DNA from: a virus | Taxonomy: Duplodnaviria > Caudoviricetes | DNA: 58,390 bases | Virus record (IMG/VR): IMGVR_UViG_3300049259_000203 | Location: 1-58,390 of that record | Strand: one strand, 5' to 3' | Shown: positions 21,899 through 25,264 of the stretch, piece after piece | How positions within the stretch are numbered: position 1 is the first letter of the stretch | Layout: each line of letters starts with the position of its first letter | Made by a program: the position numbers and the translations under genes | The notes under the pieces: model-generated | Seen by the model: only the letters and a program-made list of their open reading frames with translations | The model's database searches: none | Told to the model about the DNA's origin: nothing

Positions 21899-22185
21899 GA
21901 GCCCGCGGGGAGCGCGGGCGCGGTGCCGCCGTACGCCTCGATGACGTCGCCGAAGCCGACGCCGGCGTCGACGGCGGTGCGCGCGATCGCGCCGCGCACC
22001 CGGGCGAGCTCGCGCCGGAGGTCGTCGAGCTCGTCGGCGACCTGGTCCCGCTCCAGCTCGGCGGCGGCCGCCCGCTCGTTGGCTTCCTCGACCATCGCCC
22101 AGGTCGCGCGCCCGCGCTTGTCGCCCTCGTCGGTGGGCGCGGCCGGGGTGGCGGTCTCGGCGGCGCGGGTGTCCAGCTCGGTCAT
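21895..22185 (-). CDS. Hypothetical coiled-coil protein
   Basis: ATGA overlap and GAGGAG RBS. Confidence 0.6.
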   Translation of the reverse strand: MTELDTRAAETATPAAPTDEGDKRGRATWAMVEEANERAAAAELERDQVADELDDLRRELARVRGAIARTAVDAGVGFGDVIEAYGGTAPALPAGS

Positions 22186-23513
22186 GCGGCGCTCCTCTGT
22201 CCGTGTCGGGTCTTCCACTGCTCCAGACCCTCGGCGAGGGTCCAGCGGCCGGCGGCGCTCGTGTAGTTGAGCATCGTCGTGAACTCGGGGTATGGGCTCG
22301 GCTTCCGGCTCGCCAGGTCGAACAGCCCGCGGTACTTCATCGACACCGGCTTGTTCGTGAACGCGGTCGTGTTCACGGTGCGGATGCGGCGGCTCGCCGC
22401 GCGCTGCATCAGCGCCTGCGCCTCGGTCGACAGCGCGGCCGTCAGGACGAGCTTCGACAGCCGCGGGTACCCGGTCGGCGCCACCGCGAAATCACTCAGG
22501 AGATACGCGCTGTACCGGTCGAACTTCGGCGCGCCGACGGCGAACGCGCCGACGAGCAGCCCGTCGACGAGGACGGCGTACGCGTTCATCGGCTGCGCCG
22601 GCGCGATCTTCGGGTCGAGGAAGCGGGAGCGCAGCGTCGCGAACTGCGGCAGCCGCAGCTCGGCGATCTGGAGCCGCTCGCCGATCTCGTCACCAGGCCC
22701 CAGGCAGGGGTTGAGCACCGGCTCGGTCTTCTGGCTCGGCCGGACGACGCGCGCGCCGCGCTCCGAGCTGTACACGTAGATCGTGCGGGCCCGCGCGGTC
22801 TCCTGCACGGTGCCCCGCAGGTACGACCCGAGCTCGGGGTGCGGGACGTTCGTGCCGGTGATCCAGTGCGGCCGGTCGGTGATCGTCTCGATCAGCGCGG
22901 CCACGCCCTCCTCGTCGAGGACCTCGTACTCCGGCGCGGGCCAGTCGAACGCCTCGTGCAGCGCCGCGAACATCGTCTCGTACCCGCCGGTGTCGAACGG
23001 CGGGAACGACGCGACGATGCCGTCGCGGGGGACCTCGCTCATCAGCCACTCGCCGGCGTCGCCGGCGTAGAACGACTCGAGCCGCACCGTCAGCTTCGCG
23101 AGCTTCGCGACCGTCGAGTCGTACAGCCGCGTCCACTGCTCGCGGTACGCCGTCGCCATCCGGTCGAAGTAGGCGTTGCCGGGGCGGTCGATCGCCGGCA
23201 GGAGCCGCGTGCACAGCAGCAGCGTCGCCACCGTGCCGGGGCCGCCGTCGAGGTACGGCCGCAGCCACTCCAGGTCCTCCCGGTCGGGCTTCACGTCGAC
23301 CGGGACCGGCGTGCGGCCGGACAGCCACCAGCCGATCGCGCAGGTGTAGAGCTGGACGTCGTTGCCGTGCAGCCGGCGGCCGGTGGGGGCGAGGGTCCGC
23401 TCGATCGTGAAGTTGCCGGAGCAGGCGACGTACACGTCCTGGTCGGCCGGCCACGACAGCGCGTGCTCGGCGATAATCGCGCGGAGCGGCTGCGGGAGGC
23501 TACCGAGAAACAT
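22182..23513 (-). CDS. Amino-methyltransferase-like domain fused to a GNAT/Mom-like domain (putative DNA base-modification enzyme)
   Basis: Start MFLGSLP at 23513. N-half has VYVACSGNF (motif I-like), GND, and SFPPF (degenerate motif IV). C-half has YAVLVDGLLVGAF..YLLSDFAV..RLSKLVL..TTAFT..MKYRG (GNAT-like). Confidence 0.7.
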   Translation of the reverse strand: MFLGSLPQPLRAIIAEHALSWPADQDVYVACSGNFTIERTLAPTGRRLHGNDVQLYTCAIGWWLSGRTPVPVDVKPDREDLEWLRPYLDGGPGTVATLLLCTRLLPAIDRPGNAYFDRMATAYREQWTRLYDSTVAKLAKLTVRLESFYAGDAGEWLMSEVPRDGIVASFPPFDTGGYETMFAALHEAFDWPAPEYEVLDEEGVAALIETITDRPHWITGTNVPHPELGSYLRGTVQETARARTIYVYSSERGARVVRPSQKTEPVLNPCLGPGDEIGERLQIAELRLPQFATLRSRFLDPKIAPAQPMNAYAVLVDGLLVGAFAVGAPKFDRYSAYLLSDFAVAPTGYPRLSKLVLTAALSTEAQALMQRAASRRIRTVNTTAFTNKPVSMKYRGLFDLASRKPSPYPEFTTMLNYTSAAGRWTLAEGLEQWKTRHGQRSAA

Positions 23514-23736
23514 CGACCACGTCGAAGCCGTCGGAGCGCAGGTGGTCGAGGACCTCGTCGACGTCGACGTGCGGGGGGCGCACGTACAGGAGGCCGATCG
23601 TGACGATCGGCGACTCGTTGCCGACGCCGTACTCGGTGCACACACTCGCGACCTGCTCGTACTGGCTGCGCAGCGCGCGCAGCGCGACCTCGTCGGCGGT
23701 CGACCGCGGCCGTACCGTGATCGTCGGGTAGTGCAT
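23500..23736 (-). CDS. Small hypothetical protein
   Basis: AAGGAGG RBS before MHYPTIT. Confidence 0.7.
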   Translation of the reverse strand: MHYPTITVRPRSTADEVALRALRSQYEQVASVCTEYGVGNESPIVTIGLLYVRPPHVDVDEVLDHLRSDGFDVVDVSR

Positions 23737-23751
23737 CGTCGTACCTCCTTG

Positions 23752-23822
23752 AGCGCCGGGGAGGACTCGAACCTCCGCACCACGACTGGTCGCCGTGGGA
23801 GTGCCCGCTGCACTGCCGACGC
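23752..23822 (-). tRNA. Non-canonical tRNA-Gly-like element
   Basis: Cloverleaf: acceptor GCGTCGG/CCGGCGC plus discriminator T; D-arm GTGC-AGCGG-GCAC; anticodon arm CACGG-CGACCAG-TCGTG; T-arm GGAGG-TTCGAGT-CCTCC. No encoded CCA. Confidence 0.7.
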
Positions 23823-23857
23823 GGGACCGGGCCCCACCCCTCGCGGGGCCCGGTGGT

Positions 23858-24271
23858 CTAGCGGCCGAGCGGTAGTGCGTCCCGTTCGGCGTCGCGGCCG
23901 AGCTCGGGCACCGGCTCGCCGGTGTTCTGCGTCCACCACTCGGCGAAGATGCGGCGGTGGCACCACAGGTCCGGCTTGCCGAGGTCCTCGAAGCAGAGCA
24001 GGACGAGGGTCTCCTCGCCGGCCTGGTCGGCGACCGCCTGGCACTCGGCCGCGATGCGGGCGACGCCGGCGGCGTCGAGCCGGGCGACGTAGAGCTTGGT
24101 GTAGGCCGGCCGCTCCAGCCGGAGCCACGCCCGGTCGGGGTAGAGGGTCGGGAGCGCGTGGACGAGCGGGTACTTGGTGCCGTACCGGGGTGCTCCGATG
24201 CTCGTCCTGACGGGCACGCCCATCGGCTCGCGGAACTGCGAGTACGAGCAGGTGCGTAGGTCGAAAGCCAC
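23858..24271 (-). CDS. DUF488-family protein
   Basis: TCSY..PVRTSIGAP..LYP..LVLLCFE..WCHRRIFAEW. Confidence 0.75.
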   Translation of the reverse strand: MAFDLRTCSYSQFREPMGVPVRTSIGAPRYGTKYPLVHALPTLYPDRAWLRLERPAYTKLYVARLDAAGVARIAAECQAVADQAGEETLVLLCFEDLGKPDLWCHRRIFAEWWTQNTGEPVPELGRDAERDALPLGR

Positions 24272-24274
24272 TGG

Positions 24275-24345
24275 TCGGTCCTCCTGTGAGAGGTTGGTGT
24301 GCTGATCCCAATGTACATGATGTAGGCACAGAGAGTGCGGGTTTG
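24275..24345 (-). promoter_or_regulatory. Probable promoter/operator and extended RBS for the DUF488-tRNA-like-MTase/GNAT operon
   Basis: AT-rich gap containing ATGTACAT and the CTCTCACAGGAGGACC start motif; only a partial match to the promoter repeat. Confidence 0.5.
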
Positions 24346-24346
24346 G

Positions 24347-25264
24347 TCAGGTGGTCGGCGTGTCGCCGCGGGCGTCCTCCAACCTCGCCGTCGCGAGCGA
24401 CAGCGCCTTCGCGCGGCGCATCGTGCGCCGCGCCCTGAGCATCTGCTGGTACACGGCCTCGAACCGCTCGGCGTGCAGCCCGAGCTCCCCGGACAGCGCG
24501 CTGGCGAGGTCCTCCGGCCGCAGGATCGCGATGTCGGCGAGGAGCGCGCTCACGCCGTACAGCCGCTCGATCGCGTGCCGCGTCTCCTTCCGGCGCCGCC
24601 GCTGCTGCTCGACCTGCTCGGGTGTGCGGTCGTCCGGCCAGAACGCCGTCTGCTGCTCGCCGAGCTTGAGCGCCCGCGCGAAGTCGACGGCGTCGGTCTC
24701 GGTGGGGAAGTCGCCGCGGACGTACCGCGCGACGGCGTGCCGCTGGCTCGCCGGCGAGAGCTGCGCGATGTAGTACGCCGGCGTGATCTTCAACGCGCCG
24801 GCGTCGACGAGCGGCCAGAAGTCCTCGCGCAGCGTGAGCAGCCCCATCCGCCAGTGCACGTACTCGGTGCTCTTGCCGAACCGCTTCGCGATCGTTGCGA
24901 CGTCGCGGCCGGCGGCGTGCAGGAAGCCGTACGCCGCGACCTCCTCCATGATCGTCATGTCGGCGCGGTTGACGTTCTCGGCGACGCTCGCCTCGAACGC
25001 CTCGACGTCGTCGGTGAGCCCGTCGAACACGATCGACGGGATGTCGGTCACGTCGGCGAGCCGGGCAGCGCGCCAGCGGCGCTCGCCGGCGACGATCAGG
25101 TAGCGGCCCTCGTCGGCCGGGCGGACAAGGATCGGCTCGAGGACGCCGAGCTCGGCGATCAACGCGGCCAGCTCCGCGAGCTTCGCCTCGTCGAAGTGCT
25201 TGCGCGGCTGCCGCGGGTCCCGGTCGATCTGGTCGAGCGGGAGGACGTCGTACCGGGGGCGCAT
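24347..25264 (-). CDS. ParB/Spo0J-family protein
   Basis: QPRKHFD..GVLEPILVR..YLIVAGERRWRAA..ENVNRAD..HTH (IAKRFGKS). Confidence 0.9.
   Translation of the reverse strand: MRPRYDVLPLDQIDRDPRQPRKHFDEAKLAELAALIAELGVLEPILVRPADEGRYLIVAGERRWRAARLADVTDIPSIVFDGLTDDVEAFEASVAENVNRADMTIMEEVAAYGFLHAAGRDVATIAKRFGKSTEYVHWRMGLLTLREDFWPLVDAGALKITPAYYIAQLSPASQRHAVARYVRGDFPTETDAVDFARALKLGEQQTAFWPDDRTPEQVEQQRRRRKETRHAIERLYGVSALLADIAILRPEDLASALSGELGLHAERFEAVYQQMLRARRTMRRAKALSLATARLEDARGDTPTT

Follow-up and report, generated by a model that had tools for sequence, protein, structure and literature searches.

Phage tRNA genes are ordinarily accounted for by codon supplementation or by evasion of anticodon nucleases, and the question raised by the locus described here is what a phage might gain from one that has kept the marks of glycine charging and lost those of decoding. 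The window analysed, i.e., the whole 58,390-bp stretch of the soil phage record IMGVR_UViG_3300049259_000203 (direct terminal repeats, approximately 72.5% G+C, nearly all genes on the (-) strand), carries on its (-) strand, at 23752..23822, a 71-nucleotide (nt) tRNA-Gly-like gene extending from G1 to the discriminator U73, upstream of a gene (hereafter gene C) for a Dam-like/GNAT fusion protein. A preliminary description of the sequence had recognised the tRNA-like element, lacking two pieces of context, namely the downstream fusion gene and the use of Gly-tRNA-Gly by the enzyme Mom of phage Mu (PMC13219725). The element is proposed here to be a private, non-decoding glycyl donor for a Mom-like DNA modification by gene C, a reading drawn by analogy with Mom and given a probability of approximately 0.6.

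The tRNA-Gly-like element of the window

The element was delimited from the sequence, ARAGORN, RNAfold, and a covariance model of its relatives. The sequence first reported is exactly that of the (-) strand between 23822 and 23752, and ARAGORN identified it as a tRNA-Gly with anticodon acc (23751-23822(-)), the sole tRNA call across the window. RNAfold predicted a cloverleaf (-36.7 kcal/mol, z = -2.16), the fold energy alone being modest evidence, as 6/200 shuffles folded as well. The acceptor stem comprises 7 bp and the T arm is canonical, as described initially (GGAGG/UUCGAGU/CCUCC, with a UUCRANY-type T-loop).

Canonical elongator tRNAs are marked by U33, an open 7-nt anticodon loop, and U8, none of which is found in the element. 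The deviations listed in the preliminary description are all visible in the sequence: position 8 is C, the D-loop has 5 nt (AGCGG), G replaces U33 in an anticodon loop reading C-G-ACC-A-G (anticodon ACC, A34), and CCA is not encoded, the acceptor stem being followed by UCAAGG. With C32-G38 and additional pairs, the anticodon stem reaches 7 bp and closes a 5-nt loop (GACCA), so that the 3-nt linker described between the D and anticodon arms holds if the anticodon stem is kept to 5 bp and shortens to 1 nt in the minimum-energy fold. The determinants read by bacterial glycyl-tRNA synthetase (GlyRS), reported as G1-C72, C2-G71, C35, C36, and U73 (PMC10464925), are all present, together with G3-C70.

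No Rfam family reached its gathering score anywhere in the window, the general tRNA model RF00005 (gathering score of 29 bits) included, and the best tRNA-clan score in a lax-filter search of the window was 14.1 bits, to tRNA-Sec. This match and those to mascRNA (18.1 bits, E 0.41) and, on the opposite strand, to CcsR1 and ncS035 lay far under threshold and were taken as chance. A covariance model (R2) was built from 41 related, fusion-linked elements, with the window element excluded, and applied to both strands of the window with filters off. It scored the element at 50.5 bits (E 5.8e-9) and the runner-up place at 15.9 bits, which sets the element above chance. The element is a real cloverleaf and a member of a tRNA-Gly-like family. 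GGU, the codon read by an ACC anticodon, makes up 7.4% of the glycine codons of this phage and GGC 64%; being the only tRNA call of the window, a copy for so rare a codon would be of little use as a decoder. A look-up of sequencing runs returned no RNA run with this sequence among those listed; the one run that contained it was DNA from a soil metagenome, possibly the origin of the sequence itself.

Conservation of charging and decoding positions

In an alignment of 37 elements, from which a further covariance model (R1) was built, 96.3% of the cells pair, and both-sided changes occur in 17 of the 22 stem pairs, covering all four stems. Neither the percentage paired nor the covariation score was matched by any of 500 shuffles, and controls with slid partners paired at most 41.7%. 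The preliminary description had argued for selection rather than decay, naming, next to the lack of a discrete transcript, a lack of compensatory stem substitutions among relatives as what would speak to the contrary; such substitutions were found, and its argument is sustained by them. The invariant columns of the alignments are G1, C2, G3, C35, C36, G53, C56, C61, C70, G71, C72, and U73.

Family statistics were computed on the 84 distinct sequences out of 95 model hits. Across these copies G1-C72, C2-G71, G3-C70, U73, C35, and C36 are unchanged, in agreement with the glycine identity first attributed to the window element. The loss of decoding features claimed with it also finds support in the family, in which U33 and positions 34 and 37 are free to vary. 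The anticodon is UCC in 51 copies, CCC in 21, ACC in 11, and GCC in 1; position 33 is U in 59, C in 19, G in 4, and A in 2 (non-U in 25/84); position 37 is A in 40, G in 32, C in 8, and U in 4 (a pyrimidine in 12/84). Positions 32 and 38 form a standard pair in 82 copies (C-G 64, G-C 9, U-A 4, U-G 3, A-U 1, G-U 1), the GG of the D-loop is present in 45, UGC replaces UUC in the T-loop of 13, and U73 is followed by C-C in 41. The nucleotides read by GlyRS are frozen, whereas those needed by the ribosome are not.

The tRNA-Gly genes of the host were inspected in two module-bearing Streptomyces genomes, and by visual reading all have U33, A37, and U-A or C-A at positions 32-38. These host tRNAs score 53.5-75 bits on the Rfam tRNA model, while the linked copies in the same two genomes gave no Rfam tRNA match at E <= 1; among linked elements, 4/20 passed the Rfam tRNA gathering score. 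The linked copies are very unlike host tRNA-Gly in sequence and are therefore not recent captures.

Linkage to the Dam-like/GNAT fusion gene

Gene C (22182..23513, (-) strand) encodes 443 amino acids, with a Dam-like N-terminal domain matching PF22555 (phage DNA adenine methylase-like domain 1; E 6.7e-86) and a GNAT-like C-terminal domain matching PF22559 (phage GNAT-like domain; E 1.5e-50), and is the presumed user of the glycyl-tRNA-like RNA. Its relatives number 267 in IMG/VR, according to a profile-based scan, and 361 in species-representative bacterial genomes, and the loci of the best 80 of each set were analysed (L numbers below denote individual loci). An R1 copy on the same strand and at most 500 nt upstream of the homologue was found in 42/80 IMG/VR loci and in 39/80 bacterial-genome loci, the latter mostly from Streptomyces and Micromonospora, with some from Actinoplanes and Nonomuraea, and probably representing prophages. 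ARAGORN made tRNA calls in 44/80 IMG/VR loci, all glycine (UCC, CCC, ACC) but one undetermined, and over the 160 loci (971,546 nt) its calls amounted to 80 tRNA-Gly, 2 tRNA-Arg, and 1 undetermined. The identity of the RNAs correlates with that of the gene C proteins (Spearman 0.73), a value that none of 999 permutations attained.

Among 50,697 phage records, a tblastn search with gene C returned 15, from 10 Mycobacterium and 5 Gordonia phages. Mycobacterium phage Argie has an annotated tRNA-Gly immediately upstream of its gene C homologue. In the Gordonia phages Clawz and Soos, where ARAGORN makes no call, the gap upstream of the homologue holds a degenerate copy with a GCG...CGC-U acceptor helix and a CC-containing hairpin, scoring 51.4 and 46.9 bits with R1, respectively. 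A ParB-like gene is annotated right after the homologue in all three phages. Taptic and Jeon are further cultured phages with this module, and Mycobacterium smegmatis mc2 155 or Gordonia rubripertincta serve as laboratory hosts for phages of this group. A single-protein pattern scan of IMG/VR found just 8 distant gene C loci, in which ARAGORN made no tRNA-Gly call and one undetermined call (L011), whose element scores 58.6 bits with R1; weaker R1 matches in L009, L005, and L006 (E 0.005-0.011) were left out of the counts.

The neighbourhood is shared as well. By tblastn, a homologue of the DUF488-like gene that precedes the element in the window (gene A) lies upstream in 100/171 loci, usually ending just before the tRNA-like element, and a ParB-like homologue lies within the 2.5-kb flanks in 58/171. 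The order in the window, i.e., DUF488-like gene A, RNA, gene B, and gene C, all on the (-) strand, fits this family arrangement. The DUF488-like gene is on the opposite strand in L008 and L009. Tandem copies of the linked tRNA-Gly-like gene were observed upstream of one homologue in L072 (1478-1551 and 1553-1626) and in L071 (2261-2335 and 2351-2426).

Predicted structure of gene C

The model of the GNAT domain (predicted local distance difference test, pLDDT, 95.3) was assigned to the GNAT fold by Foldseek, and Mu Mom (8bv8_B) ranked 2/999 in structural comparison, with Z 11.6 and a root-mean-square deviation of 2.9 A over 138 residues. The model of the N-terminal domain (pLDDT 93.1) has a methylase fold, for which Foldseek returned AviRa and Mcbe1 first, followed by E. 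coli Dam and DpnM at E of approximately 6e-4 to 1e-3. The gene C profile had no meaningful match among the sequences of solved structures (best E 0.24), and judged by sequence gene C lies outside the Mom family. In a weak alignment of gene C with Mom, which affords no reliable residue mapping, the column of Mom R111 meets the family-invariant K of an RLSKL motif. The (D/N/S)PP(Y/F) motif of adenine methylases is represented in the Dam-like domain by SFPPF (residues ~168-180), and the second P and the following G-Y-E are the sole invariants of this region across relatives; the pattern fits an adenine-binding pocket that may no longer methylate.

Copies beside Mom-family genes

Members of the same RNA family were also found beside true Mom-family genes. 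Mom-family (PF25680) matches occurred in 4/401 Actinomycetota genomes, and the best such gene (147.6 bits) is preceded, a few tens of nt upstream and on the same strand, by an R1 match of 63.2 bits, corresponding to an RNA missed by ARAGORN whose enlarged anticodon loop holds ACC. In IMG/VR, R2 was applied to a sample of 80 diverse Mom-family loci (best 80 of 551), yielding 30 matches, all on the Mom strand. Glycine-type elements accounted for 20 of them, one per locus in 20 loci, with many abutting the Mom gene (visual alignment reading); one has A73, one starts with GCC, and those of L356 and L367 have the loop CGACCAG, identical to that of the window. The remaining 10 were Thr, Ala, and Pro tRNAs in arrays.

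The linkage between RNA and GNAT gene recurs beside two families without detectable sequence similarity, in hosts ranging from 39 to 72% GC. Occurring beside fusion genes as well as Mom genes, the RNA family is associated with two kinds of GNAT, and for one of them the use of Gly-tRNA-Gly has been demonstrated by experiment.

Two further features were noted at Mom loci. The Mom gene lies within an array of Thr(UGU), Ala(UGC), and Pro(UGG) tRNAs in L338, L339, L342, L343, L349, L353, and L354, and a Gly(UCC) tRNA is also part of the array in 3/7 of these (L342, L343, and L354; anticodons by visual alignment reading). Short GCGC...GCGCUCCA helices occur near two actinobacterial Mom genes (L317 534-556 and L318 3047-3092), with the same acceptor-end pattern and non-significant scores (12.7 and 12.1 bits, E 0.19 and 0.25, respectively).

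Proposed function and comparison with known systems

The element is proposed to be a functional gene for a tRNA-Gly-derived RNA that would no longer serve the ribosome. RNase P and a 3' nuclease would cut the RNA out of the transcript, the host CCA-adding enzyme would supply CCA, and host GlyRS would charge it, as proposed because the RNA keeps every known bacterial glycine determinant. The GNAT domain of gene C would then take the RNA as a private glycyl donor and, by analogy with Mu Mom, glycylate adenines of double-stranded phage DNA at N6. The Dam-like domain would locate and flip the adenine to be modified, and the products of the neighbouring ParB-like and DUF488-like genes would possibly act as helpers. 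Relieved of decoding, such an RNA would be able to drift at U33, at position 34, in the 32-38 pair, and in the D-loop, and this drift may also keep it clear of the ribosome and EF-Tu. The ribosome-binding site that follows U73 may in addition be freed by processing at the element, which is compatible with this proposal.

The model for the chemistry is Mu Mom, a GNAT that draws glycine from Gly-tRNA-Gly and attaches it to adenine N6 in double-stranded DNA, a step followed by a rearrangement (Silva et al., Nat Commun 2026, PMC13219725). As described in the main text of that paper, Mom takes all three E. coli glycine isoacceptors and not Gly-tRNA-Ala, requires the terminal riboadenosine of the tRNA, depends on residues R111, S124, and R151, and contains a helix-turn-helix (HTH)-like insertion (PMC13219725). 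The window module resembles it in pairing a phage GNAT-fold enzyme, superposable on Mom, with tRNA-Gly, and in belonging to an RNA family that also accompanies true Mom genes. It differs in that Mu borrows a host tRNA and has no private one, and in that gene C is without significant sequence similarity to Mom, has a Dam-like domain, the HTH-like insertion being a feature of Mom, and travels with ParB-like and DUF488-like genes.

For the RNA itself, the closest functional analogy, with no relationship of descent, is offered by the staphylococcal non-proteogenic tRNA-Gly NP1-NP3, which are used by FmhB/FemA/FemB and are reported to carry a UGC/UGU triplet for UUC in the T-loop and weak EF-Tu-binding T-stem pairs (PMC7826273). 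UGC in the T-loop likewise occurs in part of the phage family, as counted above. The staphylococcal RNAs, in contrast, are cellular RNAs found in staphylococci alone, where they supply the Fem-family enzymes of peptidoglycan synthesis, whereas the window RNA belongs to viral or mobile elements and is linked to DNA-modifier-like genes; its T-loop is canonical and its deviations sit in the anticodon and D arms. With ordinary phage tRNAs the element shares the shape and the detection by ARAGORN, and it differs from them in being solitary, in belonging to a family that is always glycine and fixed beside one enzyme gene, in failing the Rfam tRNA model, and in the loss of U33. A role for the ParB-like gene may be suggested by the T-dioxygenases, ParB-dependent phage DNA-modifying enzymes whose activity is raised by the ParB partner (PMC13229309); the likeness lies in a ParB-like gene co-encoded with a phage DNA base-modifying enzyme, the enzyme family and chemistry being different and no tRNA being involved.

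Gly-tRNA-dependent DNA modification was demonstrated just in 2026, for one enzyme (Mu Mom) and with a borrowed host tRNA; tRNA-dependent DNA modification is thus known, and the novelty of the present proposal would lie in a self-supplied, non-decoding tRNA. By term look-up, the main text of the Mom paper (PMC13219725) and the 2023 preprint make no mention of phage-encoded tRNAs, fusions, or actinophages. Literature searches of texts other than supplements, where any Mom gene-neighbourhood figures could bear on the point, retrieved no paper in which a tRNA-Gly gene of a phage is connected with a gene for a GNAT or for Mom. If correct, the proposal would give the non-proteogenic tRNAs of staphylococci their first counterpart in a virus, a virus-encoded cofactor tRNA exempt from translation, and would add to the uses of phage tRNA genes, which are mostly interpreted in terms of codon usage. 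DNA hypermodification would also become a candidate role for PF22555+PF22559, a large enzyme family yet to be studied, and the modification could affect the restriction sensitivity and the sequencing of these phages. Standard tRNA finders miss or mislabel tRNA-like genes of this kind, and culturable phages of Mycobacterium smegmatis and Gordonia lend themselves to direct testing of the idea.

A broader hypothesis, whose chances we rate a little short of even, envisages a ribosome-blind lineage of phage and prophage tRNA-Gly with the sole job of delivering activated glycine to DNA-modifying GNATs, comprising both Mom and the Dam-like/GNAT fusion with its ParB-like and DUF488-like helpers. Selection for charging only would be eroding it toward 5-nt or 9-nt anticodon loops, perhaps even toward bare acceptor minihelices. 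The window module would write a glycine-derived adenine mark at sites picked by a repurposed Dam-like reader, supplying its own cofactor RNA.

Weighing of the alternatives

Several observations weigh against a private glycyl donor. The tie of gene C to Mom consists of fold and context, not homology: gene C has no PF25680 match in the Pfam search, hhalign gives its GNAT domain a probability of 0.85% against Mu Mom and 7.2% against the Mom profile, and the structural match to Mom is tied with those of many ordinary acetyl-CoA GNATs (Z 10-12), so that the fold alone is no pointer to a tRNA donor. R1 has no match in 32/80 IMG/VR and 40/80 bacterial gene C loci, nor in any of 60 Mu-like mom loci (L193 and 59 of 80 loci); with about half of the gene C loci and the Mu-like loci devoid of a linked tRNA, a private RNA is not obligatory. 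The majority of family members, having retained U33 along with a position-37 purine, could still decode, and in one group of Mom loci the Gly tRNA is located inside an array with Thr, Ala, and Pro tRNAs. The correlation between RNA and protein identities may partly stem from shared host composition, a 78-aa gene (gene B) separates the RNA from gene C in the window, and no transcript, charging, or DNA-modification data were found for this phage or any relative.

Some of these observations are what would be expected of an ordinary, if odd, phage tRNA-Gly that aids host translation and owes its place by gene C to a historical accident kept by synteny. The ARAGORN call, the 7-nt loop retained by many members together with U33 (59/84) and a purine at 37 (72/84), the 4/20 linked elements that reach the Rfam threshold, and the arrays at some Mom loci all accord with it. 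We nevertheless consider a decoding function unlikely, given that the window copy combines G33, A34, and a C32-G38 pair with an anticodon for 7.4% of the glycines of the phage, that 80/83 ARAGORN calls in the 160 loci are Gly, that 1/84 copies has GCC, which reads the glycine codon most used by GC-rich hosts, that U33 is lost in 25/84, and that the linkage recurs by two sequence-dissimilar GNAT families in hosts from 39 to 72% GC. RNase P and RNase Z read the shape of the acceptor and T arms, and the element could alternatively be an uncharged cis-acting device, either a punctuation mark whose cutting by RNase P/Z exposes a ribosome-binding site, as the preliminary description had suggested, or a regulator of gene C expression. 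Its placement is suggestive, with AAGGAGG 2 nt after U73, a hairpin ending 3 nt before G1, and co-oriented family members nearly always located in the gene C leader or where a Mom gene ends. A signal recognised by shape, however, leaves unexplained why C35, C36, and U73 are invariant in 84 copies while neighbouring loop positions vary, and the invariant set equals the GlyRS determinant set; processing is also expected of a glycyl donor and is not exclusive to a cis element, which we accordingly regard as improbable.

Altered anticodon loops could evade nucleases, and the preliminary description had also raised a decoy for anticodon nucleases. In its wider form, this explanation makes the element a counter-defence decoy or spare part against systems directed at tRNA-Gly or at its aminoacylated 3' end (anticodon nucleases, toxSAS, GNAT toxins), and suitable attackers are reported: tRNA-Gly is a target of the toxSAS FaRel2 (bioRxiv 10.1101/2024.07.05.602228), and TacT acts on Gly-tRNA-Gly (PMC13219725). 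A decoy would not have to adjoin one particular enzyme, whereas this RNA keeps a fixed position and follows gene C or Mom, a translational spare part should retain U33 and a useful anticodon, and we know of no defence directed against tRNA-Gly in these hosts, all of which makes this explanation very unlikely. A decaying tRNA pseudogene or a tRNA-derived integration-site core would be in keeping with the low general-tRNA score, the several non-canonical positions, and the lack of an encoded CCA. This origin was rejected as extremely improbable in view of the full cloverleaf, including its 5' half, the compensatory changes in all four stems family-wide, the 50.5 bits on a model built without the window element, the position held in cultured phages, bacterial-genome loci (probably prophages), and metagenomic contigs, and the dissimilarity of linked copies from the host tRNA-Gly of the same genomes.

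Genomic context of the module

The gene order was established from a frame plot of third-position G+C (GC3) combined with reading of the open reading frames, and runs on the (-) strand as ParB-like gene, gene A, hairpin, tRNA-like element, AAGGAGG, gene B, and gene C. The ParB-like gene (24347..25264, (-)) encodes a ParB N-terminal domain and an HTH (PF02195, E 1.8e-25; PF17762). Gene A (23858..24271, (-)) was placed in the GC3 frame with a GTG start at 24271; its 137-aa product is DUF488-like by its match to phrog_2450 (E 1.8e-12), the match to Pfam DUF488 being weak and under the cut-off (E 0.041). The DNA similarity of the window to known phages is confined to two short 72-nt matches inside gene A, from which it follows that there is no close cultured relative.

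Between gene A and the element, reading of the sequence revealed a GC-rich hairpin at 23826..23854 (-), with a 10-bp stem (ACCGGGCCCC / GGGGCCCGGT) and a 9-nt loop, located after the gene A stop and not followed by a U tract; it may serve as a terminator or as a processing context. A consensus promoter scan of 23400-24400 found no promoter-like site, and a consensus terminator scan of the same region made two terminator-like calls, both at the end of gene B, leaving the hairpin uncalled.

The ribosome-binding site AAGGAGG (23744..23750, (-)) belongs to gene B (23500..23736, (-); ATG at 23736-23734), which was defined by the GC3 frame plot and its translation and belongs to no known family, its product having neither a Pfam nor a PHROG match. 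Homologues of gene B were found by tblastn in 0/171 related loci, marking it as an extra insert particular to this phage. Its end overlaps the start of gene C by 14 nt, and a strong ribosome-binding site is present.

In the 72 gene C loci without a model match, a hairpin search designed for GCG...CGC-T helices, and hence biased, was positive in 29, of which 23 share one conserved Streptomyces-type hairpin. This GC-rich structure starts with GCG and ends with CGC followed by U, lies 54-74 nt upstream of the gene C homologue, and comes from loci of one clade (L018, L020, L021, L117, L133, and 18 others); it could be a tRNA minihelix remnant or just a terminator.

In Argie (L002, 3996-4052), gene 74 is annotated from a position approximately 50 nt inside the region of homology to gene C, which opens with an ATC that follows GGAAGGAG. 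Either the true start may lie further upstream than annotated, or translation may begin at a rare start codon.

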